The notes: a model not told the origin generated them from the sequence alone. Positions 1 through 21,844 are shown, counted from the stretch's first letter. The stretch: 64,000 bases of DNA from an uncultured Holophagales bacterium (GCA_963842525.1 CAWJGT010000013.1:1-64000), one strand, 5' to 3'. Made by a program: numbers and translations.

Positions 1-2
1 GG

Positions 3-488: not shown

Positions 489-489
489 G

Positions 490-647
490 GCCCCTCACCC
501 CCCTGACCCCCCTCTCCCAACCGCCCTCCCAGCCTCCGGGAGAGGGGGGAAGCAGACCCTCTGTCGGAGAAGCGCTCGCGGGGAGACTTCGCTCCCCTCT
601 CCCGGCGGTCGGGGAGGGCGGTTGGGAGAGGGGCCGGGGGTGAGGGG
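490..647. repeat. REP-like palindromic intergenic element (CCCCTCACCCC...GGGGTGAGGGG family)
   Basis: Nested inverted repeats cccctctcccaaccgccctccc / gggagggcggttgggagagggg; related elements at 46783-46941 and 17752-17783. Confidence 0.7.
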
Positions 648-3144: not shown

Positions 3145-3157
3145 GCGCGAGACCGTT

Positions 3158-4118: not shown

Positions 4119-4175
4119 GGGCATAGCCTGCCCTGGAGCTGATCGACCGCGCGACCTTCAAAGCCATCGAGCGGC

Positions 4176-4430
4176 CTGATCGAGCGCCGGGATACGCATC
4201 TCGACTCGCTGATCGACCGCCTGCGCGAACCGCGGGTACGGCGCATCCTCGAGCCGATCCTCGCCGGCGAGGGCCTCAAGCAACTCACGGCATACCTGGC
4301 TCATCTGGGCCTCGACTCCGGCACCCTGATCCTCTTCGACGGCCGGCCTGCCGCCCAGCCCATCCCGGAGCGTTGTACGCGGACCGAAGTCGAGCACGAG
4401 GGCCGCAGGATTACCGTCCTGCGGCTGTAG
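4176..4430 (+). pseudogene. Internally deleted remnant of an ATP-binding/PD-(D/E)XK-type protein
   Basis: Start-less frame LIERRDTHLDSLIDRLREPRVRRILEPILAG joined directly to EGLKQLTAYLAHLGLDSGTLILFD...ITVLRL*; family assignment from motif recollection. Confidence 0.5.
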
Positions 4431-4526
4431 GTGTAGGAGCCTGCGACCCGCCACGAACGCACCCTGGTACACGACAGGGGGTCCCGAAGCATCCGCTTCG
4501 GTCTCGGCGCTGAAGATTTGGGTAGA

Positions 4527-4628
4527 CGCTAACGGTTCGCGCATCACCTGCAGAACCGCGCGTTCCGAAGCCGCTCAACGTTCTACCACGGGCGGCGCGG
4601 TTCTGTCAGGTGCATGCGCATGTTAGCC
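4527..4628 (-). other. Integron attC recombination site (102 bp)
   Basis: Minus strand GGCTAAC ATGCGCATGCACCTG...CAGGTGATGCGCGAACC GTTAGCG: imperfect palindrome with AAC/GTT ends, 12 bp after the stop codon of the ICMT gene. Confidence 0.8.
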
Positions 4629-4640
4629 GGCATGTCGCGA

Positions 4641-5222
4641 TCACCAAACGCCCGGAACAAGCCGCTTCGTTCGCGCCGTGTACTCCGCGTACTGGTCGCC
4701 GAACTGGTCGAGCATCATCTTCTCCTCCGCACGGACGCGGAACGCGAACAGGATGCCGAATGCGATCAAGTACAACGGACCTGCCACCCAATTGGGAATC
4801 ACGAGCGCTTGACCGATCGAGTAGAGCAGCAACGCCATGTACATCGGATGGCGGACTTTGCAATAGACGCCATCGGTGATCAGTCGATGCTGTTCTCGCA
4901 CCTCGAGGGTAACCGACCAGTTCGAACCCAGATCAGCGTGGGACCGGTGGAAAAACCAAAGACCAACCGCGAGGCAAGCGATCCCGGCAATGAGGGGGCT
5001 GGCCCGAAGTGGATACTCCGCGAACGAGAACGCTGGCGACGCGATCCAAATCAGAGGAACGAAGAACCCGAGCCAGGCAAGAGTCAGGAGGACCGTTTCC
5101 ATCGTCCCTTTGCGGCTCGTGACGACCTTGACACCTCGACTTCGGTGACCGTGCGGGGCGCGAATGGCAATCATCACCGCGCTGGCAATCAGAATCGTCG
5201 CCTTCGCAGTCCAGGGATTCAT
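4641..5222 (-). CDS. Isoprenylcysteine carboxyl methyltransferase (ICMT/PEMT) family protein, gene cassette
   Basis: LITDGVYCKVRHPMY, EEKMM..FGDQYAEY...TKRLVP; multiple TMs; bounded by attC sites. Confidence 0.88.
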   Translation of the reverse strand: MNPWTAKATILIASAVMIAIRAPHGHRSRGVKVVTSRKGTMETVLLTLAWLGFFVPLIWIASPAFSFAEYPLRASPLIAGIACLAVGLWFFHRSHADLGSNWSVTLEVREQHRLITDGVYCKVRHPMYMALLLYSIGQALVIPNWVAGPLYLIAFGILFAFRVRAEEKMMLDQFGDQYAEYTARTKRLVPGVW

Positions 5223-5284
5223 GGTCGGGCCCTCGTCCTCGAGATCATCGGTCGCTCACCTGTCCTCGGACGTTGATGTCCGGC

Positions 5285-6083
5285 GCCGAGTAGGCCAGGG
5301 GGTCTCACGACCCCCCCAGCCCCTCTAAGAACCGTACGTGCGAGTTTCCCCGCATATGGCTCAAGCACCTCAAAGGCCGATCTTACTCGACCCGGTTGCC
5401 TGTTACCTACTCCTGGGCAACATTTGCGATACTAACATGTAGTAGGCACCAGCTCTGGCCACAGCCAGAGGAGGGAGTGCACAGACGGGTGGTCGAACCA
5501 CCTCCATCTCCCATTTGCTTTCCCCGTTTAAGATGTTCTCCATACGCTCTCGCAAAGAGGCACCAGTCGGACGTCTGCTCACTTTCGTGCCGGGTGACGT
5601 TGCCCGTATCTGCCCCATTACAGGACGGCGTTCGCTTCTTCCGACCTCCCAAACCCGCATCTCCAACAGTTCCCCTTACGGTTCGCCTTCCCCCTGTGGG
5701 AGAGATACGGGGTTACCACGTTCCGCTTCTGAAGTCTTCGCGCTGTCGACCGGGAAGCACCGTTGACCACGAGGTGGCACCGTTAAATCCACCTCCGGCT
5801 TCCGCACCTTTTGGTCTGAGCTTGTCAGCCACTTTAGCTCGCCGCCATTGACGGTCGTTGCACAGGTTCACATGTGTTTACCATACCCGCTACCTAGCCA
5901 TCACCCGGCTTGTGGCTGCCAGGAGGACAGGTTCCTCACGGTTCCCATCCCGCATGCCTTCGCATGCTTCTGTACATTGTCAGGGCCGCTCTTTATTCAG
6001 GCCCTTAGGTTCACCCGGTGGTACGGGTGGTTCCGCCTCCAAGAGGGGAACAACTTCATATATAAAGCGACATCGTGTCGCAG
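5285..6083 (-). ncRNA. ORF-less group II intron (probably IIB type) inserted in an attC site
   Basis: Minus strand: 5' end CTGCGACACGATG; domain V GAGCCATATGCGGGGAAACTCGCACGTACGGTTC; domain VI hairpin ending CCTACTCGGC; EBS1-like loop at 5771-5795; no RT ORF. Confidence 0.88.
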
Positions 6084-6141
6084 TAACGGGCCTGATCTTC
6101 AGCGGCGGCGCCAGCCGTCCGCTGCAAGGCCCGTGTTAGGC
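6084..6141 (-). other. Integron attC site interrupted by the intron (remaining GCC at 5284-5282)
   Basis: Minus strand GCCTAACACGGGCCTTGCAGCGGACGG...CGCCGCTGAAGATCAGGCCCGTTA, then the intron; removing the intron restores GTTAGCC. Confidence 0.8.
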
Positions 6142-7304
6142 TTCCTGCTTCGCTGATTCCTTCTCTGTAGACGTACTAGTATGCCCCATTGACTGCTATT
6201 GAGAAGCTTACGTTCATCCACGATCCCATCGAGCACGCAACCAAGAAGCCCACCTATACTGCCCAAAGCCGCAGCCATATCTAAGGGGGCACCCGCCGCT
6301 AGGCTTATCGAGACAGAAAACGCTGCGGAGGCCAGTGAGGAGGAGCTACGGCCGATACTTTTCAGGGCTTCTAGCCTAGAGGCGACTAGACTTCGTCGCA
6401 GCTCATCAACGGCTGGATCAATTACCGAATCAGCGAGCGTTCGTAAAACGGCGTCCAACTCTCTTATGGGAGTAGCGGGGTCAACCTGAGAAGAGAGACT
6501 ACGAAGAGCCACTCTAAAGGATTCAAGCTCACTATACCGATCTTCGCGGATTCGAAGTAACTCCTCCAAAGGTAGGTCGTCAGCGCGCGGTAGGTATCTG
6601 GTCAATACCATGGCGGAAAGTCGACGCTCTATGTACTGATCATAATCATGAACCTCGGTTTCCAATTGCCGCGCTTCCTCGAACAGCATGCGAACTCTAA
6701 AGGTAGCGTCTTGAAACCTCGGAAGCCAGGAAAATGGAGCAACACTCTCCCGTTCGGCTACGATGGAGAGCATAAGGAGGTATTGAAAAAACAGGTAGTT
6801 TGCGAGCCGTTCCCGCCTCTCCAGAGGCCATGACAAAATGTTCTTGTTTCTCGCAGCTAAAAACTTAGTTACAGTAACCAGGTCTGAAAGACACGCAGCA
6901 GGCAGATCGTAAGCCCGATCAACAACCTTCATGACGTTCAGCCACCTACGTTCGTATCTATCATCGAGGTTTGAAATTAGATCTATCGAGGCTAGGTTCC
7001 ACGAATCAATCGCTTCCAAGTCCTTTCCCGCAGTCAACCTTAGAGGGATGGCCAGACCTTCGCGAACCAGAAGGTCGAGACTTGGGAAGCTTTCCTGAAG
7101 ACTTGTAAAATATCTTTTGAGCCGCTGAGCAAAGATTGGACTCTCTGTTCCGATCTCTTCAAAACTTCGTTGCTCTCGCTCTATAAATTGAGAGTCATGT
7201 ACCGCGAGGACGCGCACTCTGTCCGAATACAGAATTGCCGTCTGTAACGCAGCAAGGAAGCCCTCGCCGGCCTCAGGGTAGAGCAAGGTATCTTTACCTA
7301 TCAT
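6099..7304 (-). CDS. Hypothetical cassette protein (possibly DUF6236-like)
   Basis: 401-aa ORF, visibly more AT-rich than its flanks; N-terminal LLYP..AILYSDRV, LPLEELLRIRE motif, hydrophobic Gly/Ala C-terminal helices; reads into the attC. Confidence 0.7.
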   Translation of the reverse strand: MIGKDTLLYPEAGEGFLAALQTAILYSDRVRVLAVHDSQFIEREQRSFEEIGTESPIFAQRLKRYFTSLQESFPSLDLLVREGLAIPLRLTAGKDLEAIDSWNLASIDLISNLDDRYERRWLNVMKVVDRAYDLPAACLSDLVTVTKFLAARNKNILSWPLERRERLANYLFFQYLLMLSIVAERESVAPFSWLPRFQDATFRVRMLFEEARQLETEVHDYDQYIERRLSAMVLTRYLPRADDLPLEELLRIREDRYSELESFRVALRSLSSQVDPATPIRELDAVLRTLADSVIDPAVDELRRSLVASRLEALKSIGRSSSSLASAAFSVSISLAAGAPLDMAAALGSIGGLLGCVLDGIVDERKLLNSSQWGILVRLQRRNQRSRKPNTGLAADGWRRR

Positions 7305-7644
7305 CTCTCACCTGTACTCACTATGCCGCCAAACCTCTGTCTCACATATTCGCCGGCACTCTGCTCGCCGGCCAATACGACACAACCTGCGGGTTGACTC
7401 TACGGCCAGTCCCAGGGTGTTGAGTGTGCAAGGTGCTTATCCTCTTCGACTTAGCGGTACTCTACACCTCTTCCTAACCTGCGTCAAGACCACAAGCATT
7501 TGGAGAAGCATTCTGGCGGCCTTGTGCCGCGAAAGTCGGAGCTACGTCATGCTTGGCCAGCGAAGGCGGTTAAGAAGAGTGCATCTGACGGTTGTCGAGG
7601 GGCTCTTGCGACCCCCGGCCGCCCTCGCGTAGAGTCCGCTCATC

Positions 7645-8052
7645 ATGGCTCGGAACGACGACGGACTGGATCTGGTGCGCGCGCTGTTGAGCATGGCTCT
7701 GGTCGCACTGCCGCTTTCTCCCCGCCAGATCGAGGACGCGCTGCAGATTGGCCATGGGACGTTGCCGCGGCTTCTCGACGGCCGCATGGACCTGAAGCTC
7801 CGCCATCTGCTGCCGCTCTGCGCGGTTCTCGAGATCCACCCCGGCCATCTCCTCGAGCGAGGGCTCCCCAACTGGGAGGTGACCCGCCGCATCGACGACT
7901 GGCTGCCTCCTGATCGCCGCGAAGCGGCGGCCTCGCCCGTAGCACTTTCAGCCGAGGTCCTGCAAGAGATCCGCGCCGTGGTTCGCGAGGAAATCTCCCG
8001 CGCCGGCCTTGCATCCAGCGGAGAACGGCAAAAGACCGCGCGCAAGGGCTGA
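7645..8052 (+). CDS. XRE-like helix-turn-helix transcriptional regulator
   Basis: LSPRQIEDALQIGHGTLPRLLDGRMDLKLRHL pattern. Confidence 0.65.
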   Translation: MARNDDGLDLVRALLSMALVALPLSPRQIEDALQIGHGTLPRLLDGRMDLKLRHLLPLCAVLEIHPGHLLERGLPNWEVTRRIDDWLPPDRREAAASPVALSAEVLQEIRAVVREEISRAGLASSGERQKTARKG

Positions 8053-8089
8053 CGCCTCGGAATCACGGCGAACGGCCCGCAAAGAGTCC

Positions 8090-8491
8090 TCAAAAGTCGC
8101 GCGGTGGCCTTAAAAATCCGGCGGAGTCCCGAAATATCGGGCACAGTCCGGAAAAGTCGGACGTAGCCCTGAAATGTCCGGTGTAGTCCGGAAAAGTCGG
8201 TGGTAGTCCGGAAAAGTCCGGCGTTGTCCTGAAAAGTCGCGCGTAGCCCCGAAATGTCGGGCGTAGCCCGGGAATGTCGCGGTCCGCCGCCCAGCCGGAC
8301 CGCCAGAGAGATAGCTCCACGCCCTCGCGCAACGCGGGCAGGGCCTCGACCGGGAAGCCGCCGCCGGAGAGGGTGGCGGCCATCCGGATCTTCCGCTCGG
8401 CCTGGGAGAAGACCTCCCGCGCCTCGGCCAGCCGCCGGCTTCGCTCGGCGTCGGCTCCGGGCGCCGGGGCGCGCGAATCGAGCTCGCTCAC
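8090..8491 (-). CDS. Short ORF or gene remnant; ~65 plausible helical residues, then runs into the 20-bp array
   Basis: GTG start overlaps the stop of the upstream dehydratase; RRLAEAREVFSQAERKIRMAATL helix. Confidence 0.35.
   Translation of the reverse strand: MSELDSRAPAPGADAERSRRLAEAREVFSQAERKIRMAATLSGGGFPVEALPALREGVELSLWRSGWAADRDIPGLRPTFRGYARLFRTTPDFSGLPPTFPDYTGHFRATSDFSGLCPIFRDSAGFLRPPRDF
8091..8280. repeat. Tandem array of ~9.5 imperfect 20-bp units, consensus GAAAAGTCGG-NCGTAGTCCN
   Basis: Units start at 8091, 8111, 8131, 8151, 8171, 8191, 8211, 8231, 8251, 8271. Confidence 0.85.
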
Positions 8492-9216
8492 CCCGCCAGG
8501 TACGTGCTGATCGTGCCGCGCGCCAGCTCCTGCCCCCCCGCACCCTCGACGACCACCTCATAGACCGACAGCGGCGGTGCGCTGCCGGTGCGCCGGACGG
8601 CGAAGCGCAGGGGACGGTCCACGGGCAGCCAGGGCGCTGGGAACCGGGCGTCGCGGAGGCCGACCAGATAGCCGATCCGGGGGCCGGGCTGGTCGGTCCG
8701 GCTGAGGGCTTCCAGGACGGCCGCTCCCTGGGCCGCGGCTTCCAGGCCCAGGAAGGTGGGGGCGCGGCCCTCTTCCACGAAAGGGCTCGCGGACGGGATC
8801 TCGGCAATGCCGGCGAGGCTTTCCTCATCCCACTCCAGGATGCCTCGGACGAGCCGAGCCGGTGGGGTATGGGGGATCAGGGCTCCGAGCGGCGTCATCT
8901 CCGGAAGACCGGCGAGCGGGACCGGCTCATCCTCCTCCAAGGGACCAAGCCGGAGCGTGCCTTGGCTGACCCGGTCGGTTCCCCGCAGGAGATCGAACCG
9001 GACTGTGCCGTCCGCTGCCGGGCCGTCCAGGTTCAGGTCGAGGACATTTCCAGGCCGCACCGGGTTGCGCAGCCGCAGGCTGGCGATCTCGGCGATCCGG
9101 GCCTCCTTGCCCAGGGCTTGGCTGACCAGCGCCAGGTGGGCTACGCCCGGAAGGATCGGATGGCCGGGGAAGTGGCCGGCAAAGAAGGCGCTGCCTTGCG
9201 GGATCTCGATCCTCAT
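8488..9216 (-). CDS. Double hot-dog dehydratase (ApeI/ApeP-like fusion)
   Basis: FFAGHFPGHPILPGV (FabA/FabZ-like) plus a second domain LIPHTPP...EAAAQ...GYLVGLR. Confidence 0.8.
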   Translation of the reverse strand: MRIEIPQGSAFFAGHFPGHPILPGVAHLALVSQALGKEARIAEIASLRLRNPVRPGNVLDLNLDGPAADGTVRFDLLRGTDRVSQGTLRLGPLEEDEPVPLAGLPEMTPLGALIPHTPPARLVRGILEWDEESLAGIAEIPSASPFVEEGRAPTFLGLEAAAQGAAVLEALSRTDQPGPRIGYLVGLRDARFPAPWLPVDRPLRFAVRRTGSAPPLSVYEVVVEGAGGQELARGTISTYLAG

Positions 9217-9250
9217 CGCGGTCCTGCGCGCTGAGCGGCGGCGGCCCTCC

Positions 9251-9496
9251 TCACCACCGGAAGACCTCGTCCAGCGAGCGGGCGGTGATCAGGCGCTCTC
9301 CCCATAGGAACAGCCGTTCCGAGGCCGCCAGCTCGATTCGAGTCCGGTCGTGAACACCCAGGGGACCGAACTTCCGTTCCGCCTGTCGGAGCAGCAGCTC
9401 GGCGCCGCCCTGCCTCCGGCCTTCGTCCTGCCACTGCCGGGTCCAATCGAGGACCGTTCCTCCGGTCCGGCTCCAACCGTCGTCTCTCGTGTTCAT
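9251..9496 (-). CDS. Stand-alone DUF4351 / Rpn C-terminal domain protein
   Basis: WTRQWQDEGRRQG..LLLRQAERKFG...WGERLITARSLDEVF; RBS GAGGAGG. Confidence 0.7.
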   Translation of the reverse strand: MNTRDDGWSRTGGTVLDWTRQWQDEGRRQGGAELLLRQAERKFGPLGVHDRTRIELAASERLFLWGERLITARSLDEVFRW

Positions 9497-12040: not shown

Positions 12041-13526
12041 TTACCGGCAGGTCCTGGCCTTCTTCGCGCAGCTCCGGGAGCAGCACTGGGCGTTGCTGGT
12101 GCAGGCGGCTCCGGCGGGCGCGCAGGTACCGCCGCTGCAGGTGCTGCTCTCCTTGCCGCCCAGGGAGACGAGCCCGGCGTTGTTCGGGTCGAGCCAGGTC
12201 GAGAGGCCGGCGGACCACGAGGAGGAGAGCTTGCCGAACTCGTCCCAGCCGCCGCTGCAGTCGGCCGTGCCGCCGTGGAGCTGGCCGACGATCTGGTGGC
12301 TCGAGTTGAACAGCGGGCAGCCCGAGGAGCCGCCCTCGGTGGTGCCGGTGTCCCAGCCGAGGATCCGCCAATGGTCGCCGCCCCAGCCGCCGTTGTAGTT
12401 GCCGCCGTCGGCCACCAGGTCGTCTTCGAAGCTGATCTTCTTGATGTCGCCCGCGGGGTGGTGGATGGCGACGCCTTTCGACGGGGCGGACGCGGAGCGG
12501 TTGAAGCCGGCGTAGTAGACGTTGTAGGCGGCGTTGGGCCGGGCGTTGAGCTCGAGCAGGGTGAAGTCCGAGCCTGCGTTGGTGGCGCGCAGGGCAGAGC
12601 CGCTGGAGGTCTGGTTGAGCGGCCCGGTGCTGCCGGCGCAGGTGGAGCTTCTCGTAATTCCAATAGAAGGTCAGGGCGGCCGCGGTCTTGCTGCGGCTCA
12701 CACAGTGGGCGGCGGTCAGGAAGTAGGGCTTGCAATCCTGCCGGCCGTTGTTGATCAGGCTCCCGGTGCACAGGAACCGGCCGTCGTAGGTCCGGGCGAC
12801 CGCCCGTTTGTCGGCCTGCCAGGCGCTGCCGTCGGAGCAGTTGACGTTCACCTCGCAGGCGCCCGAGGCCTTGATCGACACGCCGCTGCGGAAGGCCTCC
12901 AAGGCGGTCCGCAGGCCGTCGCGGAACGGCACCCGCTCGAAGTCGTTGAAGTCGCGGTAGCCGTGCGAGACCGAGCGGACGACGAAGGCCGGCTCCCAGG
13001 GAGCCCGGACCGGGGTGTAGAGCTCGATCACGGCCGAGTCGCCGGGCAGGGCCGGGCTGCCGAAGACACGCTCGGGGTTGTTGATCCGGTCGGTGTACGG
13101 CCCTTCCTGCCATTCGCGGTCGACCGAGTAGAAGCGCAGCTCGGCGCCGGGCGGCAGCGCGACGTCCTCGAGGAGGAAGCTCAGGAAGACGGCGCCGTGG
13201 GAGGTGACACGCAGCCGCCACAGGGTCCCGCCGTCGGGCAGGGCCTCCCGGGTACCGTCCTCGGCCGGGGAGAGGCTCACCGCCACCGGCTCGGCCACCC
13301 GGTACGGGACGCGCTGAGGACCGATCTCCCGCGCGTTCAGGTCGTCCTCGAACCGCAGGGAGTCGACGTCGACGAAGCGCAGGAACCGCTGGTCGATCGC
13401 GTCGTCGGAAAGGACGTCGTGCGAAAAGCTGAGGGGGCGCGGGACCGGCGCGGCCTCCAGGCTCAGGGGCAGGGCTGCGAGGGAGAGGGCCGCCAGCACG
13501 AGCCGGACCCACAGGCGAGGTTCCAT
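12041..13526 (-). CDS. Secreted lysyl-endopeptidase-like S1 serine protease with Cys-rich tail (frameshift near 12645)
   Basis: Signal peptide, CEVNVNC, CTGSLINN, LTAAHC, TEGGSSG, VGQLHGG; the two halves are in different frames. Confidence 0.85.
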
Positions 13527-13779
13527 CAGCTTCGTCCTCCATACTCCACTACATCGCGAACGGGAAAAGTGTCGCACAGACGGGCCGCGTCGCACCAGGG
13601 GGTATTTTGGGCTCATCCTGGTCTCATCCGGGACTCCGAGCCGCACCTTTAACTGTGGCGCCCGGACGAAGGGCGCACATTTGCGGGCTCGCGGCACTTA
13701 TAGTCCGCGTCAGCCCCACTCCCAGAAGAGGCGGGGGCACGGCCCGAACCCATGAGTCGTTCTTGAGAGGAGAGCTTTC

Positions 13780-14283
13780 ATGAGCAACGCAGATTCCACG
13801 ACGCTGCTGGCGAAATATGCCAAGAGCATCGACCACATCGCCATCGCGGTGCACGACCTCGAACAGTCGATCGATTTCTACAGCAAGGTCCTCGGCTTCC
13901 AGCTCCACGAGCGCCGCCGGACCGAAGGGAAGGTCACCGCCATGGTCTCGGCCGTCATGAAGGCCGGGCCCGTCACCGTGGTCCTGCTCCAGGGCACGTC
14001 GCCCGAATCGCAGGTCTCCAAGTTCGTCGAGCACTACGGCGCCGGCGTCCAGCACATCGCGTTCGGCATCGAGGACCTGCCCGCCATGGTCGACGACCTC
14101 CGGGCCTCCGGCCTCGAGTTCGACACCAACATCATCAGCAGCCCCGGCCTGCGGCAGATCTTCACCCATCGCGACCAGGGCTCGGGCATGATGTACGAGT
14201 TCATCGAGCGGCTGGGCGGCGACTTCTCGGACGAGAGCGTCAAGAACCTCTTCGAGCAGCTCGAGGCGAAGGACTCCTACTGA
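13780..14283 (+). CDS. Single-domain VOC metalloenzyme resembling the catalytic domain of HPPD/hydroxymandelate synthase
   Basis: IDHIAI, SQVSKFVEHYGAGVQHIAF, LRQIFT, YEFIER, FSDESVKNLF (His/His/Glu triad). Confidence 0.75.
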   Translation: MSNADSTTLLAKYAKSIDHIAIAVHDLEQSIDFYSKVLGFQLHERRRTEGKVTAMVSAVMKAGPVTVVLLQGTSPESQVSKFVEHYGAGVQHIAFGIEDLPAMVDDLRASGLEFDTNIISSPGLRQIFTHRDQGSGMMYEFIERLGGDFSDESVKNLFEQLEAKDSY

Positions 14284-14287
14284 ATTC

Positions 14288-15598
14288 ATGAACGTCGAGC
14301 TCAAGAGCTGCTTCGGCGAGCCTCTGCTCGCGGTGATGAACTTCTTGAACGAGGTGGTGCTGCGCTACCCCGGGGCGGTCTCCTTCGCCCCGGGGCGGCC
14401 GGCGGAGCGCCATTTCGACGTCGAGCACAGCCTGGCCAAGACCCCGGCCTTCGTCGCCTGGCGCGCGAAGGACACCGGCTGGCCTCCTCTGGCGGTGTGG
14501 AACGACCTCGGGCAGTACAACAAGACCAACGGCATCATCAACGAGCTGATCTCCCGGCAGCTCGAGCTCGACGAGGGTATCCACGCTCGTCCCGACTCCA
14601 TCGTCGTCACCCACGGCTGCCAGGAAGCGATGGTCGTCCTGCTGCTCGGGCTGTTCGAGACGGGTGACGTCCTGCTGGCGAGCGATCCGACCTACATCGG
14701 CATCACCGGCCTGGCGGCGATCGCCGGCATCCCCGTGGTCCCGGTCCCCACCGGGGAGGAGGGGCTCGACCCGCGGACGGTCGCCGCGGCCATCGACGAG
14801 GTGCGCCGCTCGGGGCGCCGGCCGCGGGCGCTCTACGACATCCCCGATTTCAACAACCCGCTCGGCACGCAGATGCCGCTCGCGGCCCGCCGCACCCTTC
14901 TCGCGGTCCTCCGCGACCGCGGCGTCCTTCTGTTCGAGGACAATCCCTACGGCATGTTCTCCTACGACGTCGACCCGCTGCCTACGCTCAAGTCGCTGGA
15001 CGAGCACGGCGTGGTCGTCTACCTGGGCAGTTTCTCGAAGACCCTCTATCCGGGCCTGCGGGCCGGCTATCTCGTGGCCGGCCAGGAGGTCGTCTCCGCC
15101 TCGGGCGCGCGGACGTCGCTCGCCGCCGAGCTGTCCAAGGTCAAGAGCCTGACCACGGTCACCACCTCGCCGGTGGTCCAGGCCGTGGTCGGCGCCCTGC
15201 TGCTGGAGAACGGGGGCTCGCTGCGCGGCCTGGTACGGACCAAGATCCCCTTCTACCGCGCCAACCGGGACCGCATGCTCGCCTGCCTGGAGGAGCACCT
15301 CGGCGGCCTCGACGGGGTGCGCTGGAACCGCCCCGCCGGCGGCTTCTTCCTCACCGTCGACCTGCCGTTCGCCTTCGACGAGGAGTGCCTCCAGGCCTGC
15401 GCCCGCGACTACGGCGTGATCGTCTGCCCGATGACCTTTTTCGCGCTCGCCGCTGGCCGGGAGCGGCAGGTCCGGCTCTCGTTCAGCTACGTCACCGGCG
15501 AGCAGATCGAGGACGGTATCCAGCGCTTCGCGCGCTTCGTCCAGGGCATGGCGATGAGGCCGGTGGAGCCGATGGAGCCGATGGAGAACACCGCGTGA
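14288..15598 (+). CDS. PLP-dependent aminotransferase, HpgT/phenylglycine transaminase-like
   Basis: MNFLNEV..RYPGAVSFAPGRP N-terminus, PDFNNPLG, EDNPYG, GSFSKT..PGLRAG. Confidence 0.85.
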   Translation: MNVELKSCFGEPLLAVMNFLNEVVLRYPGAVSFAPGRPAERHFDVEHSLAKTPAFVAWRAKDTGWPPLAVWNDLGQYNKTNGIINELISRQLELDEGIHARPDSIVVTHGCQEAMVVLLLGLFETGDVLLASDPTYIGITGLAAIAGIPVVPVPTGEEGLDPRTVAAAIDEVRRSGRRPRALYDIPDFNNPLGTQMPLAARRTLLAVLRDRGVLLFEDNPYGMFSYDVDPLPTLKSLDEHGVVVYLGSFSKTLYPGLRAGYLVAGQEVVSASGARTSLAAELSKVKSLTTVTTSPVVQAVVGALLLENGGSLRGLVRTKIPFYRANRDRMLACLEEHLGGLDGVRWNRPAGGFFLTVDLPFAFDEECLQACARDYGVIVCPMTFFALAAGRERQVRLSFSYVTGEQIEDGIQRFARFVQGMAMRPVEPMEPMENTA

Positions 15599-16678
15599 AG
15601 ACCGTTCCTGCCGCCGTCCTGGACCGCGTCATGCGCGCGGCCCTGCTCCGGCGCGGGCTCTCGGAGGAGCATGCCGGCTGGGTGGTGGACGGCCTGCTGG
15701 AGACCTCGCTCGCGCGGCATCGACACCCATGGGGTCCGGCTGTTCCCGACCTATCTCGCCGAGCTCGACGGCGGCCGGGCGCGCGCCCGGCCGGAGCTCG
15801 CCTTCCTGGCGTCCGCGACCGGGGAGCGACGGGCCGCGCGCCTGCTCGACGCCGGGCATGCCCTGGGCCTGGTGGCGGGCCGCGCCGCCTGCGCCGAGGC
15901 GGTCCGGCTGGCGCGGGAGAATGGGGTGGGCGCCGTGTCCGTGCGGTGCTCGAACCACTTCGGCGCCGCGTCCGTCTACACGCTCGAGATGGCCCGCCAG
16001 GGCGCCGTCGGGCTCGCCTTCACCAACAGCGACGCCCTGGTCGCCCCGTTCCACGGCCTGCGCCCGTTCTTCGGGACCAATCCGGTCTCGATCGCCGTGC
16101 GCGGAGAGGGGGACGACCTCTTCTGCGCCGACTTCGCCACCAGCCAGGTCTCTTATTCAAAGGTGAAGCACCACCAATCGTCCGGGATCCCCCTGGAGCC
16201 CGGCTGGGCGCTCACCGGCGCGGGCGAGGACGCGGCCGGCGGCGGTCCTTCCGAGAGTGCCGAGATCGCGGCCCTCCAGCCGCTCGGCGCCGGGAGCGGG
16301 CACAAGGGGCACTGCCTGGGGATGGCGGTCGAGATCCTCTGCGCCCTGCTCGCCGGCATGCCGCTCGACCATGAGCTGTCGCACCTCTACGCCGAGCCGT
16401 TCGACGAGCCGCGGCAGGTGGCCCACCTCTTCCTGGCTCTGGACGTGGCGGCCTTCCAGGACCCCGCGGTCTTTTGCTCCGGTCTGAGCCGTCTCACTGC
16501 CCTCGTGCGCCAGCAGCCGGCCGTGGAGGGCGAGCGGGTTTTTGTGCCGGGAGACCCCGAGAGCGCGACGGCCGCCGAGCGGCGAGTCCACGGGATTCCC
16601 CTGGAGGACCAGGAAGCCGCAGAATTTGACAGAATCGATCGAGAGACCGGGGCCTTCCTCGCGACCGCCCCTCTCTGA
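15595..16678 (+). CDS. Ldh_2 (type 2 malate/lactate dehydrogenase) oxidoreductase (frameshift near 15712)
   Basis: RGIDTHG, SNHFGA, GTNP, DFATS, GHKG, PGDPE; GTG start overlaps the upstream TGA. Confidence 0.85.
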
Positions 16679-16695
16679 GAACGGAGGCGAAGACC

Positions 16696-17745
16696 ATGAC
16701 TACCGAGACCGAGCGCCCCACTCTGAAAAAACTGGGCATTCCGGCGCGCCGGGCCGTCAGCCTGTCGCAGGAGGACCTCACCCGTCAGGAGCCGATGAAC
16801 GAAACCGGGCTGCCCCTGGTGATCCAGCCCGGATTGCCGGGCGTGAGCCTGGAGAGCTGGGCCGAGAACAACCGGGAACGGCTCACGCGCGAGCTCGAAA
16901 AGCACGGCGGCATCCTCTTCCGCGGCTTCGACGTTCCCCGGGTGGAGGAGTTCGAGCACGTCGTGCGGGCGATCTCCGGCGAGCTGCTGGAGTACAAGGA
17001 GCGCTCCTCGCCGCGCCACGCGGTGAGCGGCCGGATCTACACCTCGACCGACTATCCGCCGGACCAGCCGATCTTCCTGCACAACGAGAACTCCTACCAG
17101 GCGGCCTGGCCGCGGCGGATCTTCTTCTACTGCGCCAAGGCGGCCCAGGAAGGCGGAGCGACCCCCATCGCGGACGTCCGCAAGATTTATCAGCGGGTCG
17201 ACTCCGAGGTCCGCGACCGCTTCGTCGCGAAGAAGTGGATGGTCGTCCGCAACTACGGCAGCGGCTTCGGTCTCCCCTGGCGCGAGGTCTTCCAGACCGA
17301 CGACAAGGCCCAGGTCGAGGCGCATTGCCGCAGGAGCGGCATCGACTTCGAATGGAAGCCGGGCGACCAGCTCCGCACCCGCGCCGTCCGCAACGCGGTC
17401 GCTCAGCACCCGCAGACGCAGGAGATGTGCTGGTTCAACCATGCCACCTTCTTCCACGTCAGCACGCTGACGCCGGCGATCCGCGAGGCCCTGCTGGAAG
17501 AGTTCGGGGAAGAGGACCTGCCGGCCAACACCTACTACGGCGACGGCACGCCGATCGAGCCGGAGGTGCTCGACCACCTGCGCGCCTGCTACCACGCCGA
17601 GACCATCAGCTTCCCCTGGCAGGAGGGCGACCTCCTGATGCTGGACAACATGATGGTCGCCCACGGCCGCGCCCCCTTCAAGGGCGAGCGCAAGGTGCTG
17701 GTCGGCATGTCGCACCCGACGAGCTGGGCGGACGTGCCGGAGTAG
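16696..17745 (+). CDS. TauD/TfdA Fe(II)/2-oxoglutarate dioxygenase, SyrP-like
   Basis: IYTSTDYP, HNENSY (HxE), GGATPIAD, WFNH, DNMMVAHGR. Confidence 0.88.
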   Translation: MTTETERPTLKKLGIPARRAVSLSQEDLTRQEPMNETGLPLVIQPGLPGVSLESWAENNRERLTRELEKHGGILFRGFDVPRVEEFEHVVRAISGELLEYKERSSPRHAVSGRIYTSTDYPPDQPIFLHNENSYQAAWPRRIFFYCAKAAQEGGATPIADVRKIYQRVDSEVRDRFVAKKWMVVRNYGSGFGLPWREVFQTDDKAQVEAHCRRSGIDFEWKPGDQLRTRAVRNAVAQHPQTQEMCWFNHATFFHVSTLTPAIREALLEEFGEEDLPANTYYGDGTPIEPEVLDHLRACYHAETISFPWQEGDLLMLDNMMVAHGRAPFKGERKVLVGMSHPTSWADVPE

Positions 17746-17868
17746 GCGGAGACCCCCTCTCCCTCGGCACGGCGGAGAGGGGCCGCCGTCAATAACCGCT
17801 GGTACATGTCCACCCCGACATGGCCCTGCTTCAGAACCTCGCCTGTGGCCTTCATCAGCCCAGGGTCT

Positions 17869-18396
17869 TCAAGGCCGGACCGGAGCGTCGTTCGGAAGCA
17901 CGAGGAGAGCGGGAGGGTTACCCTCCTGGATCTTCCAGGTGCAGTTCTTGATGCGGCAAATCTCCCCCATGACATCCCGCAACTCGCTGTTGTCGACCTG
18001 TAGATGGATTGTACCCTTCACATCCCGGTGCAGGGCCGGTCTGACCCCCACCTGATTGGCGAAGCTCATCAGAACCTCTCTCAGGTCCGCGCCCTGGCTC
18101 AGGTCCTCGCCATGGGCACGTATGGTCACCTTGCGCCTCGCTATTTCGTCAGAGACCGGGAGGTCTACCTGGGGAGTGAAAAAATGGACCGCAAAACCAA
18201 GCACCATTGCAACTAGTGCTAAAACAAATAGATAGTTGATGATGCGAAGGAGAACATCACGATTGTGCTCTCTTGCAAGCTTGGGGAAGATGCCGAGCTT
18301 CAAGATCCGCCGGAACAGAAAGAACAGCACTGCAAGGGCAAGGCCGGCCAAGCCGAGCGGTTTGGAGATATTGGTGAACTGGGGGAGTATTTCCAT
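17869..18396 (-). CDS. Membrane protein with C-terminal STN/secretin-N0-like domain
   Basis: Two TM helices, then ADLREVLMSFANQVG...VKGTIHLQV...EICRIKNCTW. Confidence 0.6.
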   Translation of the reverse strand: MEILPQFTNISKPLGLAGLALAVLFFLFRRILKLGIFPKLAREHNRDVLLRIINYLFVLALVAMVLGFAVHFFTPQVDLPVSDEIARRKVTIRAHGEDLSQGADLREVLMSFANQVGVRPALHRDVKGTIHLQVDNSELRDVMGEICRIKNCTWKIQEGNPPALLVLPNDAPVRP

Positions 18397-18488
18397 AGCT
18401 TTTTCCTTACAGCTTGAAGGACGCCGTTGCGGATCAATGCGAGCCGTCCATCTCGGCTTCAGACCTTCTCAAGTGAATCGGATAGGGG

Positions 18489-18512
18489 GTTAGACTGCGT
18501 CTAAAGTCTAAC
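18489..18512. promoter_or_regulatory. 8-8-8 dyad GTTAGACT-GCGTCTAA-AGTCTAAC
   Basis: Exact 8-bp inverted repeat with 8-bp spacer, ~95 bp upstream of the 18396 start. Confidence 0.4.
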
Positions 18513-18590
18513 ACACGGACGAAAGAAGCAACCGGGCCACTCCGCTGCCGAGGAGCGGCCCGGGTCTGTGGAGGGAGTCGAAGCCGCGGC

Positions 18591-18995
18591 TCAGAGCCGG
18601 CTCACGACGAGGCTGGGGGTGGGCTTATCCAGGATAAGCCACTGACATTCCAAGGCGGTGCAGAGGTTCTCCATGACCTCGTCGAGATCCGACTCTCTTG
18701 CTTCGATCGACATCCTGCCCTGGAAGTCGCCCTCAAGCACTAGGCGGGCACCGATTTGGTCGGCGAAAGAGTGGAGGATCTCCTCGACCCTCCGATCCCG
18801 GGCGCTGATCGTGACCTGCCGGGGCACGGCTTCGGCTTGGAAGGCCGGCGGTGGAGCTGGGCTCTCCCTCGGAGTGGTCATCCATAGCGAGCCGAGCGGT
18901 ACCAGCAGTAAAGCCGCAAAGGACAGGTAGAAGCGGAACGGCGAGGGATTCCGAAGACCGAACATCAGCAGTCTGGCCTTCTTGAGCAGCATCAT
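18591..18995 (-). CDS. Membrane-anchored STN/secretin-N0-like domain protein
   Basis: TM helix, Pro linker, VEEILHSFADQIG...FQGRMSI...NLCTALECQW; paralogous to the 17869 ORF; start approximate. Confidence 0.6.
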   Translation of the reverse strand: MMLLKKARLLMFGLRNPSPFRFYLSFAALLLVPLGSLWMTTPRESPAPPPAFQAEAVPRQVTISARDRRVEEILHSFADQIGARLVLEGDFQGRMSIEARESDLDEVMENLCTALECQWLILDKPTPSLVVSRL

Positions 18996-19031
18996 CGAAT
19001 CCTCCCTGCAAGGCTTTGTCACGTCAGGGGT

Positions 19032-20196
19032 CTACCGGACGCTCAGCCGGGCGGAGCGGGTCTGCCCCCCAACTTTCGAATCCGTGAACTCCTCCCAGAC
19101 TGCCGCTTCCAGAGTACCCCAGCCGAGCTTCCATACCTCGACCGCGCCATCGGCTGCAGCCAAGTAGAGCCCATCGCGGCCGGCCGCCATGCTGACCTCA
19201 CCTGCAGGTGACAACTGTACGGCAATTGTTTCAACCGTGCCGGTCACCGGATTGTACCGACCCAGAGCCGTTCCGCTGCCCGTCAGCGATGGGCCCAGGA
19301 GCATATACAACACTCCATCCGGACCGAGAGTCCAGCCCCGGATCCCCAATTGAGCTGTAAATACGCCGGCATGGGCACCGGGGTTTCGATAGCCCTGTTT
19401 CTGCAGGCTCGCGACGAAGCTCTTCTTCAGCTCCGCCTCGTCACCACGGTGCCGGGCCGCGCCGGTGCCGAGCACGATCTCGGTGTCCATCCTGCTGGCC
19501 GGCGTGAAGCGGCGCAACCGCCCTGTGTAGGGGTAGGCGACCCACATCCTCCCTCTCTCGTCCCCCAGCAGCTTGAGGGTGTGGTCTGCGAAGAGTGCGT
19601 TGATCGGGTCCCGATCCTGGGCGCGCTTCGGCGCCACGCCCGGGATGTAGGTCTCCCACAATCGGTTTCCGAGCCTCAGCACAAGGGGAGGCACGGGGGG
19701 GCGTCCCAGGGAGGCCTTGCGGCCGATGCTCATCGGCAGGATCCCGGCCGCCGGAGTGTCCCGCAGCACCGCCACCGATGTCACCAGCCATCCGATGTCG
19801 GGCGTGCTCTGCAACTTGCCATCCTGAACGCAGATGACCCGGTTTGCGGCCGCAAGGGCCCATAGCCTGCCGTCCCGGCTCAAGGCGGCGCTGGCGATCT
19901 TTTCACCGGGCGGTGATACCTGCCTCGAGCCGTCGCGGCTTGCCGATGACTCCTCGGTCGATGGGGTAGACATCGAGCGTATCCCCCCGCAGCAGGAAGA
20001 GGTTGCCTTTGCCGTCCGCCTGGAGAAAGCGTGGCGTCTTCCAGGAGTCAGGCAGAGGGACTTCGGAGGGGATCAGGGGAGCGGTACGTACTTTGCCCTG
20101 ATTCTCGCCCTTCGCAAGGCCACTTCCCAGGAACAGAAACACAAACACGGCCGCTCCCATCAGGAGGGCCACCCTTCTCGATCCTAGGTCTCGCAT
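19032..20196 (-). CDS. Secreted beta-propeller-like hypothetical protein (frameshift near 19915)
   Basis: Signal peptide in ORF 19903-20196 continues into ORF 19032-19973; repeats such as ADGKGNLFLL, DERGRMWVA, GPDGVLYML. Confidence 0.6.
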
Positions 20197-20366
20197 AGCC
20201 AGCCACCGCTGAAGGTACAGAAGTTACGGCAGTCGGTGCTCGAACCATCCTCCCAATATACTGTAACCCCGGAAAAGCAAATTGCATAGACGACAGGAGC
20301 GACTGCAGCGAAGGTTGCCAGTAACACTACGACGAGAACAGACTTCTTGCCAGATGGTCTCTTCAC
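20184..20366 (-). CDS. Small secreted 4-Cys peptide
   Basis: RBS AGGAGAGG; signal peptide ending VYA; mature ICFSGVTVYWEDGSSTDCRNFCTFSGGWLCET. Confidence 0.6.
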   Translation of the reverse strand: MKRPSGKKSVLVVVLLATFAAVAPVVYAICFSGVTVYWEDGSSTDCRNFCTFSGGWLCET

Positions 20367-20658
20367 GTCCCTCTCCTTTGGATTCTACCGCAGTTCCTGT
20401 AATAAACAGGGTGCGCACCAGCCTGTCCAGTGAGACACTCGGTCGCAAGCAGGTTGCTCCGAGAGCTTTAAGGCCCCCTCCCTGGACCTGAAATCCGCTG
20501 CCTGGCGCCCTCCTCTGTTCGTGTCTCTCCCTATTAGATACGGAATTGGAACTTTTGTTCAAGTGGTTTCGTCAGGTTGAGAAGACTTTGAGTTATTTCG
20601 AAAAGCGCTTGCCCGCCGTACTGTTGGTCGTCGCTGAAACCGGCCGCCTCGGGAGGCC

Positions 20659-21844
20659 CTACTCCCGGGCTTCTGGAGGGTCGAGGACGGTGAAGTAGAA
20701 GGTCGTGCCCTTCCCCTCCTCGCTCTCCAGCCAGATTTGGCCGCCCATCTGCTCGACGGCCTCGCGGGCGATGGCGAGCCCGAGGCCGGTGCCCTCGGCC
20801 ACCTCGGGGTGGGCGCGCACGAACTGGTCGAAGACCCGGGACTGCATCTCCGGAGCGATGCCGACGCCGTTGTCGGACACCGAGATACGCCAGTAGCCTT
20901 CGTCGTCGCGTTGCACGTTGACGCGCACCCAGCGGTTGTCCTTGGCGGGGTCGGAGTACTTGACGGCGTTGCCGATGAGGTTGATCAGCGCCAGCTCGAC
21001 CCGGGTGGCGTCGACCTGCACGTCGGGGACGGTGTCCTGGGCTTCGAGGCGGACCCCCTTTTCCTCGGCCAGGCCGCGCACCTCGGAGACGGTCTCCTCC
21101 ACGATGCGCCCGTAGCGCGAGCCGGCGTCCCTGGGCGCTCTCCTCGCTCCCCTGTGCGATGGCCAGCGCGTGCACGTCGTCGGCCACCCCCTTGATACGC
21201 TGCAGGGTGTTGCGCAGGATCTTGAGCGTCTTATCCCGCCGTGCGCCTTCGAGCCCGGGGCCGTCCTGCTCCAGCAGGTACAGGGCCGCTTCGGCGGTGT
21301 GCAGGCGGTTGCGCAGCTCGTGGGCGAGATCGCGGCCGAAGCTGCCGAGCAGGCGCGCCCGCTCCCGCCGGTCGCGGAATCCCTCCTCGCGGAAGGTGGT
21401 GGCGGTGATCGTCGGTGATCGCCATCAGGGCGCGGTAGAGCCGTTCGGCTACCTCGATCGCATAGTCGGCCGGGACATCGCGGCCGAAGCTCTGCGCCTC
21501 CTCGCGCAGCGCGTTGTAGAGGATCTCCCCGAGGATCTCGAATTCGGCCAGGATCTCGTCGATGTCGTACCCCTGCTCGCGGCGCAGGCGCGCCAGGTTG
21601 GCTCGAACTCGCGCCGCACCATGTGCTGTGCCTCGAGCTCTCCGCCCGAGCAGAGGTAATCGGAGACCGCCTTCAGCACCTCGGGGATGTGGTTGAGCAG
21701 GGCGTCCGACGGAAAGACCCTGCGCGGATGGACGTCGAGGCGTTCGAGCAGCCGGTCCAGCCAGGCACGGGTCAGCTCTGTCGAGCGGCGATGCAGCTCG
21801 GATCCGAGATGGGCTTCGAGCGCCAGGACATCTTTACGGGGCAT
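20659..21844 (-). CDS. Sensor histidine kinase with RsbRD-N-like input domain (frameshifts near 21600, 21420 and 21130)
   Basis: HELRNRL H-box, NLIGNAVKY, DNGVG, GTGLGL. Confidence 0.8.

Follow-up and report, generated by a model that had tools for sequence, protein, structure and literature searches.

A four-gene operon in a soil acidobacterium probably, on balance, supplies NRPSs encoded in other parts of the genome with an arylglycine, either 4-hydroxyphenylglycine or phenylglycine, made by a compact pathway. The main evidence comes from protein families, conserved residues, fold, synteny, gene fusions, NRPS linkage and adenylation codes. The host is Thermoanaerobaculia-like and NRPS-rich, with 315 adenylation-domain matches genome-wide. 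The operon lies in the window (the whole stretch of 64,000 nucleotides that was analysed, on contig C13), where we annotated the following features:

13765-13774, + strand: Shine-Dalgarno-like purine-rich run GAGAGGAGAG, read from the sequence, 5 nt before the VOC ATG
13780-14283, + strand: VOC gene, 167 aa (Pfam Glyoxalase, 66.9 bits)
14288-15598, + strand: aminotransferase gene, 436 aa (Aminotran_1_2, PF00155, 96.5 bits)
15595-16678, + strand: Ldh_2 gene (PF02615, 261.7 bits), with a GTG start at 15595 and a long open reading frame (ORF) at 15671-16678
16696-17745, + strand: TauD/TfdA-family dioxygenase gene, 349 aa (PF02668, 175.4 bits)

ORFs and Pfam matches confirmed the four families named in an earlier note on this DNA, namely a VOC protein, a PLP aminotransferase, an Ldh_2 dehydrogenase and a SyrP-like dioxygenase (TauD family). 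The tight gene spacing given there held for the gaps of 4 and 17 nt, but the overlap of 4 nt is true only for the GTG at 15595, which is out of frame with the long Ldh_2 ORF. The Ldh_2 reading frame is intact in relatives, which read an unbroken ETSLRGIDTHG where this gene carries one surplus base near 15712; the gene is thus frameshifted as assembled. The earlier note did not mention this frameshift. Further genes in the window are broken, with three changes of frame between 20665 and 21844 and a fourth near 12648, and two same-genus relatives have them intact; this suggests indels in the assembly and not decay of the genes. The Ldh_2 frameshift is probably an assembly error as well. That the window holds no NRPS was borne out, as the adenylation-domain HMM had no match on contig C13.

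Judged from its sequence and predicted structure, the VOC protein is most likely a half-size HMS/HPPD-like Fe(II) 2-oxoacid dioxygenase, a putative assignment. Its best solved sequence relative is the HMS 2r5v, aligned in three pieces. In this alignment the predicted metal ligands H19, H92 and E140 fall on the DH, QHIA and E(V/F)IER positions, reproducing the 2-His-1-Glu Fe(II) site of HPPD/HmaS, and D18, H19, S77, H92, Q126, F128 and E140 do not vary across 24 members of the family. Two-domain HPPD/HmaS enzymes are expected to reach at least 277 bits at about 350 aa; the 167-aa VOC protein scored 79.3 bits against NCBIfam 4HPPD (TIGR01263; cut-off 277), over model positions 154-264 only. Its AF2 model (pLDDT 94.5) has a C-terminal helix at about residues 151-163 and the catalytic-domain fold of HPPD/HmaS. 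The first three Foldseek rows were HMS chains, with TM-scores normalized to the query of 0.76-0.83 for the HMS entries 2r5v, 3zgj and 7yvv versus 0.62-0.66 for named epimerases. Motifs, metal ligands, C-terminal helix and fold all uphold the earlier proposal that this protein resembles the catalytic C-terminal domain of HPPD/HMS.

JGI annotation names members of the VOC family methylmalonyl-CoA epimerase, and the protein shares with that enzyme (6wf6, 1jc4) its size, a two-module VOC fold, probably dimerization, and a contiguous alignment over residues 16-143. Against the epimerase model MCEE (TIGR03081) it scored 66.5 bits over the full model length, below the cut-off of 114.95; since canonical HPPDs reach 53-79 bits on this model with their C-domains, the value says little. 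Aligned with the Streptomyces coelicolor epimerase, the VOC protein has T53 and V68 in place of E43 and Q60, the residues mutated in solved epimerase structures (according to PDB titles), which we take to be the catalytic Glu and a Gln metal ligand. It also carries a C-terminal helix that the epimerases lack. It is improbable that the protein is an epimerase paralogue or a true HPPD making homogentisate: despite the epimerase score and the lack of a canonical HPPD or HmaS in the genome, we found no homogentisate 1,2-dioxygenase in this 96%-complete genome, a canonical methylmalonyl-CoA epimerase (153.8 bits) is encoded on contig C12, and the best folds are of the HMS/HPPD type. A tree, suggested earlier as a check, placed the VOC family in a separate clade (SH-aLRT 90), grouping with neither HPPD/HMS nor epimerases; it took in no labelled HmaS sequence and does not settle placement relative to HPPD C-domains and epimerases.

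Modelling indicates that the VOC protein is probably a homodimer, with an ipSAE of 0.81 (best of three controls, 0.00), at least 92% of contacts common to the runs and a partner pLDDT of at least 88. Among proteins of known structure, 20 of 30 pairs and 1 of 23 single chains come up to the ipSAE mark, and the result may reflect the predictor's earlier exposure to related VOC dimers, which have already been solved. A chorismate mutase domain is N-terminal in 14 of 24 longer VOC relatives, and in 19 of 21 metagenome loci chorismate mutase stands immediately before the VOC part. These fusions tie the VOC family to prephenate-derived aromatic 2-oxo acids.

The aminotransferase, which we propose to be an arylglyoxylate (HpgT-like) transaminase, is a class I/II PLP enzyme of the ARO8/LysN/MocR-domain type that matches PF00155 and has an SFSK motif containing K251. 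Its best solved relatives are an archaeal multi-substrate aminotransferase, PH0207 and LysN; with 132 bits to the 2-aminoadipate transaminase 2egy, it belongs to a LysN/AADAT-like group. This similarity raises another reading, in which the VOC protein would be an HglS analogue and the triad of VOC protein, aminotransferase and Ldh_2 would serve lysine catabolism, from 2-aminoadipate through 2-oxoadipate and 2-hydroxyglutarate to 2-oxoglutarate. HglS (DUF1338, PF07063) is an Fe(II) enzyme that converts a 2-oxo acid into a 2-hydroxy acid by HMS-like oxidative decarboxylation, and the lysine pathway would call for exactly these three activities. HglS, however, belongs to a different Pfam family and acts on an aliphatic substrate, and the sole link found was a weak look-alike of the VOC protein in the ESM Atlas, an HGLS cluster whose score of 0.88 is under the level at which the tool counts a match as more than a lead. 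As the chorismate mutase fusions and the NRPS and Dpg contexts described below indicate aromatic substrates, we regard a role in lysine catabolism as very unlikely.

For the Ldh_2 protein we propose a role as an NAD(P)-dependent (hydroxy)mandelate dehydrogenase. Its score is well above the Pfam gathering threshold of 38.8 for this type 2 malate/L-lactate dehydrogenase family, and the operon gene is the sole Ldh_2 gene found in the genome. Our searches found no solved or characterized Ldh_2 enzyme active on mandelates. A strong FMN_dh gene elsewhere in the genome (C3:1264612) may encode an Hmo-type oxidase. The earlier note had cited FrsC as an Ldh_2 precedent; in the part of PMC9299796 that bears on this point, FrsC falls among cytosolic-like MDHs, within the classical L-LDH/L-MDH superfamily, so the precedent does not apply. 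FrsC is described there as supplying L-phenyllactate for FR900359, and resembles the role proposed for Ldh_2 in being an aromatic 2-oxo/2-hydroxy acid dehydrogenase working for an NRPS.

The proposed compact arylglycine route seems to be widespread, to judge from gene order. Of 47 loci (L028-L074) from several phyla, 28 combine VOC, aminotransferase and Ldh_2 genes, among them loci of Pseudoalteromonas rubra and a deltaproteobacterial metagenome-assembled genome (MAG); so do 11 of 15 loci from relatives. The VOC gene was present in 21 of 41 relative genomes, all 21 of them NRPS-rich: by first-look counts, VOC-positive genomes had 41-440 condensation candidates (median 187), and the median was about 25 in the 20 genomes that lack VOC, a correlation that is confounded by kinship and uses these counts as a proxy.

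The same distribution bears on an NRPS-independent catabolic or primary module, in which the aminotransferase would convert Tyr or Phe into the 2-oxo acid, the VOC protein would form (hydroxy)mandelate and Ldh_2 would form (hydroxy)benzoylformate; the end product would be 4-hydroxybenzoate, for degradation or as a quinone head-group. Most acidobacterial triad loci have no NRPS within 10 kb, and the operon proteins are 60-85% identical across the class, a conservation that would fit a housekeeping or catabolic role too. The Pfam-matched ORFs flanking the operon on both sides are also of housekeeping type and unrelated to NRPSs, while several others have no Pfam match. Nevertheless, the VOC gene was absent from all ten genomes with 21 or fewer condensation candidates, in other phyla it lies in or beside NRPS clusters and Dpg genes, and a Pfam search found no decarboxylase or ring-cleavage gene in the operon. 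We therefore consider such a module unlikely.

Links to NRPSs, for which the earlier note had proposed a search, were found in part: NRPS segments occur in 18 of the 47 loci, set against the acidobacterial triads, most of which stand alone. In P. rubra (L066) all four genes lie at the end of an NRPS cluster, in the order NRPS, TauD, NRPS, VOC, aminotransferase, Ldh_2, followed by unrelated genes. In the deltaproteobacterial MAG (L063), an aminotransferase homologue that is 55-56% identical to the operon enzyme comes immediately after a DpgA gene (489 bits against a cut-off of 425) and genes resembling DpgB and DpgC, which speaks indirectly for an HpgT-like role. An adenylation domain at this locus has the code DILHLGCTF. 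A single sentence in PMC12283262 states that DAMHLGCTFK and DILHLGCTFK accommodate Hpg, which suggests an Hpg-type code for the L063 domain; our codes were read from an HMM alignment and cover nine of the ten positions only. The near-identical code DAFHLGCTF occurs twice in another locus (L031) and once in the host genome (C9:1222397), in a synthetase of the order A-T-C-A-T-TE; the nearest relatives of this adenylation domain are Val-type domains. On other contigs the genome has NRPS modules whose codes are related; these, together with the lack of a canonical HPPD/HmaS, fit the action in trans that had been suggested.

Five VOC loci without aminotransferase and Ldh_2 genes pair instead with a module in which Gly replaces Asp235 in a ..HLG.. 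pocket, and in one of these five genomes (G045) neither an aminotransferase nor an Ldh_2 gene was matched at E ≤ 1e-30. Another genome (G044) has DAFHLGCTF modules, but its aminotransferase and Ldh_2 homologues are no closer than 31-33% identity, which weighs against the arylglycine route. The Asp235-less domains would suit a reading in which the aryl 2-hydroxy acid made by the VOC protein is itself a depsipeptide building block, with the aminotransferase and Ldh_2 serving, for example, to convert an amino acid through a 2-oxo acid into an aryl-lactate; Ldh_2 enzymes act reversibly on 2-oxo and 2-hydroxy acids. However, the adenylation domains read near the full triad (L063 and L066) keep Asp235, and in L063 the aminotransferase comes after dpgA/B/C-like genes, whose pathway requires a glyoxylate transaminase, making a depsipeptide role rather unlikely for the operon.

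The TauD/TfdA protein matches PF02668 and has in translation the iron motif H129-N-E131 ... H323, plus R325. Its gene is a genus-level add-on to the triad, and the protein is probably an accessory, putative NRPS-linked hydroxylase. Six of seven TauD paralogues in the genome have a listed condensation domain no more than 10 kb away, one of them sharing a 10,975-aa open frame with condensation domains, and a homologue with 41% identity lies inside the P. rubra NRPS cluster. The operon copy has no NRPS or carrier-protein neighbour. Its best solved relative is the sulfoquinovose dioxygenase 9yut (126 bits), followed by At3g21360.

In the proposed arylglycine route, the VOC protein, using Fe(II) held by its two His and one Glu, would convert 4-hydroxyphenylpyruvate or phenylpyruvate into (hydroxy)mandelate by oxidative decarboxylation as in HMS. 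Ldh_2 with NAD(P)+ would then oxidize the L-2-hydroxy acid to the arylglyoxylate in place of the FMN oxidase Hmo, and the ARO8-type aminotransferase would form the arylglycine. If Tyr or Phe is the amino donor, as for HpgT, the 2-oxo acid of the first step would be regenerated. Arylglycines have no beta C-H available for hydroxylation; the TauD protein would most likely hydroxylate another NRPS-bound residue. Comparative evidence supports the (hydroxy)phenylglycine route advanced earlier, without the FrsC precedent.

Several known systems resemble the operon in part. SyrP-type hydroxylases of NRPS clusters, to which the fourth gene had been likened, belong to the same Pfam family as the TauD protein, and an NRPS-adjacent, At3g21360-like gene next to syrD in P. 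corrugata shares its automatic annotation with the second-best solved relative; unlike SyrP-type genes, the operon gene stands apart from NRPSs and is closest among solved structures to a sulfoquinovose dioxygenase. HMS and HPPD share with the VOC protein a catalytic C-domain of VOC fold, the His-His-Glu site, the C-terminal helix, and SQ..GxGxQH and QIF motifs, whereas the VOC protein lacks their whole N-terminal domain and some 20-40 residues that are inserted in their C-domain. In one locus, L063, the operon's counterparts adjoin Dpg genes, a neighbourhood also seen in glycopeptide clusters. In glycopeptide and CDA clusters the canonical Hpg pathway uses HmaS, Hmo and HpgT, and the proposed route would follow the same sequence from a 2-oxo acid through a 2-hydroxy acid and a 2-oxo acid one carbon shorter to an amino acid. 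It differs in its half-size HmaS counterpart, in the NAD(P)-type Ldh_2 where Hmo would be and, within the window, in the separation of the operon from any NRPS. If correct, the operon would run the known Hpg logic with a half-size first enzyme and a different second enzyme.

The four genes of the operon lie close together on one strand, and the earlier note gave two of the spacings, 4 nt and 17 nt, correctly.

13780-14283, + strand: VOC/Glyoxalase protein, ORF of 167 aa
14288-15598, + strand: class I/II aminotransferase, ORF of 436 aa
15595-16678, + strand: Ldh_2 gene, starting at a GTG at 15595 and frame-broken, with its long ORF at 15671-16678
16696-17745, + strand: TauD family protein, ORF of 349 aa

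A GAGAGGAGAG run lies upstream of the first ATG, that of the VOC gene; a promoter and terminator scan gave no signal above chance. The 4-nt overlap claimed between the aminotransferase and Ldh_2 genes holds only with the GTG at 15595, a start out of frame with the long Ldh_2 ORF. From this GTG, 39 codons match the N-termini of relatives, and one extra base near 15712 splits ...ETSL from RGIDTHG..., where relatives are continuous. The Ldh_2 gene (15595-16678) has one frame change relative to two same-genus relatives. Since two further genes of the window, at 12044-13538 (one frame change, near 12648) and 20665-21844 (three frame changes), are also broken here and intact in two same-genus relatives, we interpret the break in Ldh_2 as an indel of the assembly, not decay; the pattern suggests indel errors rather than pseudogenes across the window. 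A search of public sequencing runs found none containing this DNA (best share of words 0.11).

The contig (64,383 bp) falls nearly entirely inside the window and belongs to a genome of 9.95 Mb in 34 contigs; the nearest named relatives of the window's proteins are from Thermoanaerobaculia and other Acidobacteriota MAGs, which speaks against a myxobacterial origin. As first noticed, there is no NRPS in the window: none of the genome's 315 adenylation domains is on this contig, and no neighbouring ORF with a Pfam match is NRPS-related, several neighbours matching no Pfam family. At its left end (1-9300), the contig begins within an SDR/FabG-like gene, followed by an MMPL protein, a lipid A-type acyltransferase and a weak FabA-like match, a set of genes that resembles a cluster of lipid or aryl-polyene type; G+C is only 0.55-0.62 at 4000-8000. 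Downstream of the operon, 17800-20600 has lowered G+C (0.62), with three ORFs inside or just past it that lack a Pfam match. In one relative's locus (L014), the next conserved gene follows TauD without this stretch, which is possibly an insertion.

The VOC protein scored 79.3 bits against the 4HPPD model (cut-off 277), matching its C-terminal half only, and 66.5 bits against the methylmalonyl-CoA epimerase model (cut-off 114.95). The latter score says little, because canonical HPPDs also reach 53-79 bits on the epimerase model. The best solved sequence relative was hydroxymandelate synthase (HMS, or HmaS) 2r5v, aligned in pieces that comprise the ligand His (DH), a second His (QHIA), the QIFT...EFIER stretch with its Glu, and the C-terminal helix, which bears out the proposed likeness to the catalytic part of HPPD/HmaS. 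D18, H19, S77, G87, G89, H92, Q126, F128, E140 and E162 were invariant in 24 members of the VOC family. E43 and Q60 of the Streptomyces coelicolor epimerase, the residues mutated in solved epimerase structures and presumably the catalytic Glu and a Gln metal ligand, align with T53 and V68.

The AlphaFold model (pLDDT 94.5) ends in a helix at 151-163. In a Foldseek search with it, the first three rows were hydroxymandelate synthase chains; HMS entries had a TM-score normalised to the query of 0.76-0.83, and named epimerases scored lower (0.62-0.66) because they lack the C-terminal part. A homodimer model also passed (ipSAE 0.81, best of three controls 0.00), with at least 92% of contacts in common between runs and partner pLDDT of at least 88. 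Among proteins with pair structures, 20 of 30 attain the mark it passed, compared with 1 of 23 among those solved as single chains; as related VOC dimers are already solved, the pass may reflect likeness only.

One rival identification is that the protein is a true HPPD or an epimerase. Members of its cluster bear only automatic 'methylmalonyl-CoA epimerase' names, and a search of the ESM Atlas returned only unnamed VOC clusters and a weak HGLS look-alike. In a maximum-likelihood tree, the VOC family formed its own clade (SH-aLRT 90) beside those of HPPD C-domains (99) and epimerases (95), with no order among the three, so that the tree singles out neither HPPD/HMS nor epimerases as its sister; two rows labelled epimerase by length alone fell within the VOC family. 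The protein thus does not group with epimerases, nor does it fall inside the HPPD clade. Taken with the sub-cut-off scores and the HMS-type motifs and fold, this marks it as neither HPPD/HmaS as curated nor epimerase, and we regard it as a distinct compact relative retaining the HPPD/HMS active-site signature. The genome has a canonical methylmalonyl-CoA epimerase on another contig (C12); no canonical HPPD/HmaS was found in it, its sole 4HPPD match being the window's protein, and no homogentisate dioxygenase.

An exhaustive search with the VOC protein gave 44 representative clusters at E<=1e-30, many of whose representatives are about 250-267 aa long with the VOC part C-terminal. An N-terminal chorismate mutase type II domain was present in 14 of 24 longer relatives (P0244, P0246, P0267 and P0278 among others), and of 21 metagenome loci retrieved with one such protein, 19 (L089-L107) had the chorismate mutase part immediately before the VOC part. 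These fusions point to aromatic, prephenate-derived 2-oxo acids as probable substrates of the family, and against methylmalonyl-CoA or 2-oxoadipate; they likewise speak against an HglS-like role, the rival to which the weak HGLS match might be referred. Some fusion loci adjoin NRPSs with codes beginning VD, a start that we take to be typical of beta-amino acids.

The most economical reading is that of the earlier note, a compact arylglycine supply route, in which we infer all of the catalytic steps. The half-size HMS-like dioxygenase would convert an arylpyruvate to (hydroxy)mandelate. As a member of an L-2-hydroxyacid dehydrogenase family, the Ldh_2 enzyme would oxidize this product in place of the FMN oxidase Hmo, and the ARO8-type transaminase would yield the arylglycine for NRPSs encoded elsewhere. 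The window's Ldh_2 gene is the single one found in the genome, which also has one strong FMN_dh gene, distant from every listed NRPS.

The VOC gene was found in 21 of 41 related genomes, and the first three genes of the operon stood together in 11 of 15 loci fetched from relatives, followed by TauD in two, both of the same genus. A scan of named genomes added 47 loci (L028-L074) with a homologue at 46% identity or more, some of which may duplicate the former; 13 weaker matches (L075-L087, at most 37%) were left out. All three genes occurred in 28 of the 47, the aminotransferase without Ldh_2 in six (the contig ending directly after the aminotransferase in three of these), neither in 13 and TauD in three. 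NRPS segments were present at 18 of the 47, a linkage that speaks against the rival reading as a catabolic mandelate-type route. Pseudoalteromonas rubra S2676 (L066) has, in succession, NRPS (C-A-T-C), TauD, NRPS (A-T-C), VOC, aminotransferase and Ldh_2, then unrelated genes.

In a deltaproteobacterial MAG (L063), an NRPS precedes an enoyl-CoA hydratase, the VOC gene, Ldh_2 and an ABC transporter, after which come a type III PKS passing the DpgA model (489 bits, cut-off 425) and DpgB-like and DpgC-like genes. Directly behind these lies an aminotransferase homologue 55-56% identical to that of the window, where the dihydroxyphenylglycine (Dpg) pathway calls for a glyoxylate transaminase, which synthesis of that residue needs at this step. 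These genes would put dihydroxyphenylglycine genes outside actinomycetes. They span 13540-18512 of the locus (dpgA above the NCBIfam cut-off), and a frame change interrupts the dpgC-like gene.

Three MAGs have two VOC copies each on separate contigs (L040/L052, L049/L053 and L050/L054). One copy sits within the full set of three genes in two of them, and in the third (L053) the contig stops right behind the aminotransferase. The second copy lacks a close aminotransferase or Ldh_2 in its vicinity, with NRPS segments at its locus in L049 and L050. Of the VOC homologues from the scan of named genomes, the one nearest to that of the window (81% identity) is in a MAG labelled Alphaproteobacteria (L031), a label that may reflect binning, and adjoins an NRPS and a CmlA-type diiron beta-hydroxylase.

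We extracted nine of the ten adenylation specificity positions by HMM alignment, a procedure supported by the recovery of the genome's common codes in familiar forms. The code at L063 was DILHLGCTF, and that of two modules at L031 was DAFHLGCTF. According to the accessible part of PMC12283262, the sole match in a literature search for these codes, DAMHLGCTFK and DILHLGCTFK accommodate 4-hydroxyphenylglycine (Hpg). The accessible parts of PMC9581180 and PMC7866175 describe Burkholderia lipopeptides with pHpg at the site of Val or Leu in homologues, which fits the Val-like background of the ..HLGCTF codes. When relatives were searched with the DAFHLGCTF domain, the best match per genome was Val-type in nearly all, and His stood at that position in 1 of 29 (L132, a VOC-bearing genome).

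DAFHLGCTF occurs once among the 315 adenylation domains of the window's genome, in the second module of an A-T-C-A-T-TE synthetase on contig C9 (~1218700-1224600), where it follows a DAFTVAAIW module. The pair echoes DAFTIAAVW then G.LHLGLVV at two Pseudomonadota loci (L071 and L072). The larger C9 region (1211718-1224600) reads as a stop-free C...KS-AT-KR-T-TE, then A-T-C-A-(frame change)-T-TE with these two codes. Four more modules of the genome have the code DIFHFGLI(I/L), which we take, as a lead only, to resemble actinomycete Hpg codes.

Five loci from Pseudomonadota (L067, L069-L072) have the VOC gene upstream of an NRPS and neither an aminotransferase nor Ldh_2 close by; at four of these the gene stands directly before an adenylation module (A-MT-T by Pfam in L072). 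The module motif there is QAFG(V/I)S, placing Gly at Asp235 and giving the code G(I/V)LHLG... Because Asp235 is the residue that holds a substrate's alpha-amino group, such modules should load a substrate without one; they would fit as candidates for direct loading of VOC-made (hydroxy)mandelate. Direct use of the hydroxy acid is also a rival to arylglycine formation. In one genome with such modules (G045), neither the aminotransferase nor Ldh_2 gave a match at E<=1e-30; in a counter-case, the L031 MAG has Asp-type DAFHLGCTF modules, yet only distant homologues of the two enzymes.

The TauD protein had been called SyrP-like, which holds only at family level, as its best solved relative is 9YUT, a sulfoquinovose dioxygenase. 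Seven paralogues (43-57% identity) occur in the genome, six of them within 10 kb of listed condensation domains. We see TauD as an accessory gene, probably for an NRPS-linked hydroxylase acting on another residue: arylglycines lack a beta C-H, and the homologue in P. rubra adjoins a Gln-type module (code DAWQFGLID). A TauD segment on C9 (1581360-1582358), 44% identical to the window's, shares a 10,975-aa open frame with condensation domains and may represent a hydroxylase domain integrated into a megasynthetase.

We took first-look counts of condensation domain candidates as an approximate gauge of NRPS content. The 21 VOC-bearing genomes had 41-440 (median 187) and the 20 without the gene 0-189 (median about 25); none of the ten genomes with 21 or fewer carried it. 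The VOC gene goes with NRPS-rich genomes, a pattern only suggestive because kin are not independent.

No single rival, whether catabolic route, direct use of the hydroxy acid, HglS-like role or HPPD/epimerase, accounts jointly for the fusions to chorismate mutase, the neighbouring Dpg genes and the association with NRPSs. Beyond the arylglycine route, we tentatively propose, with somewhat more doubt than confidence, that the 160-180-aa VOC family is an unrecognized, widespread 'mini hydroxymandelate synthase' giving aryl-C2 units to NRPSs outside actinomycetes (Acidobacteriota, Pseudomonadota, a deltaproteobacterial MAG, perhaps cyanobacteria). It would act in three settings: with Ldh_2 and the aminotransferase, towards arylglycines; alone beside Asp235-less adenylation domains that load (hydroxy)mandelate directly, towards ester-linked peptides; and fused to chorismate mutase, drawing flux from chorismate.

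Glycopeptide and lipopeptide antibiotics have arylglycines among their key residues, and genome-mining tools detect the supply of these by looking for two-domain HmaS, Hmo and HpgT. Such rules would overlook a half-size HmaS paired with an NAD(P)-dependent dehydrogenase. In its proposed role, the operon is of interest for natural-product enzymology and genome mining. If the proposal is true, the vestigial N-terminal domain of HPPD/HMS would be dispensable, and a small oxidase-free enzyme set would serve for phenylglycines with no H2O2 made. Structure prediction would also gain for soil Acidobacteriota, whose NRPS repertoires are very large, and there would be a candidate Hpg source for Gram-negative makers of Hpg peptides.

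In searches of full-text literature open without subscription (main texts), no single-domain HmaS was described, nor any Ldh_2-type mandelate dehydrogenase that supplies NRPS precursors. FrsC, put forward earlier as an Ldh_2 precedent, does not serve as one: in the accessible part of PMC9299796, it clusters with cytosolic-like MDHs in the classical L-LDH/L-MDH superfamily and not in the Ldh_2 family.
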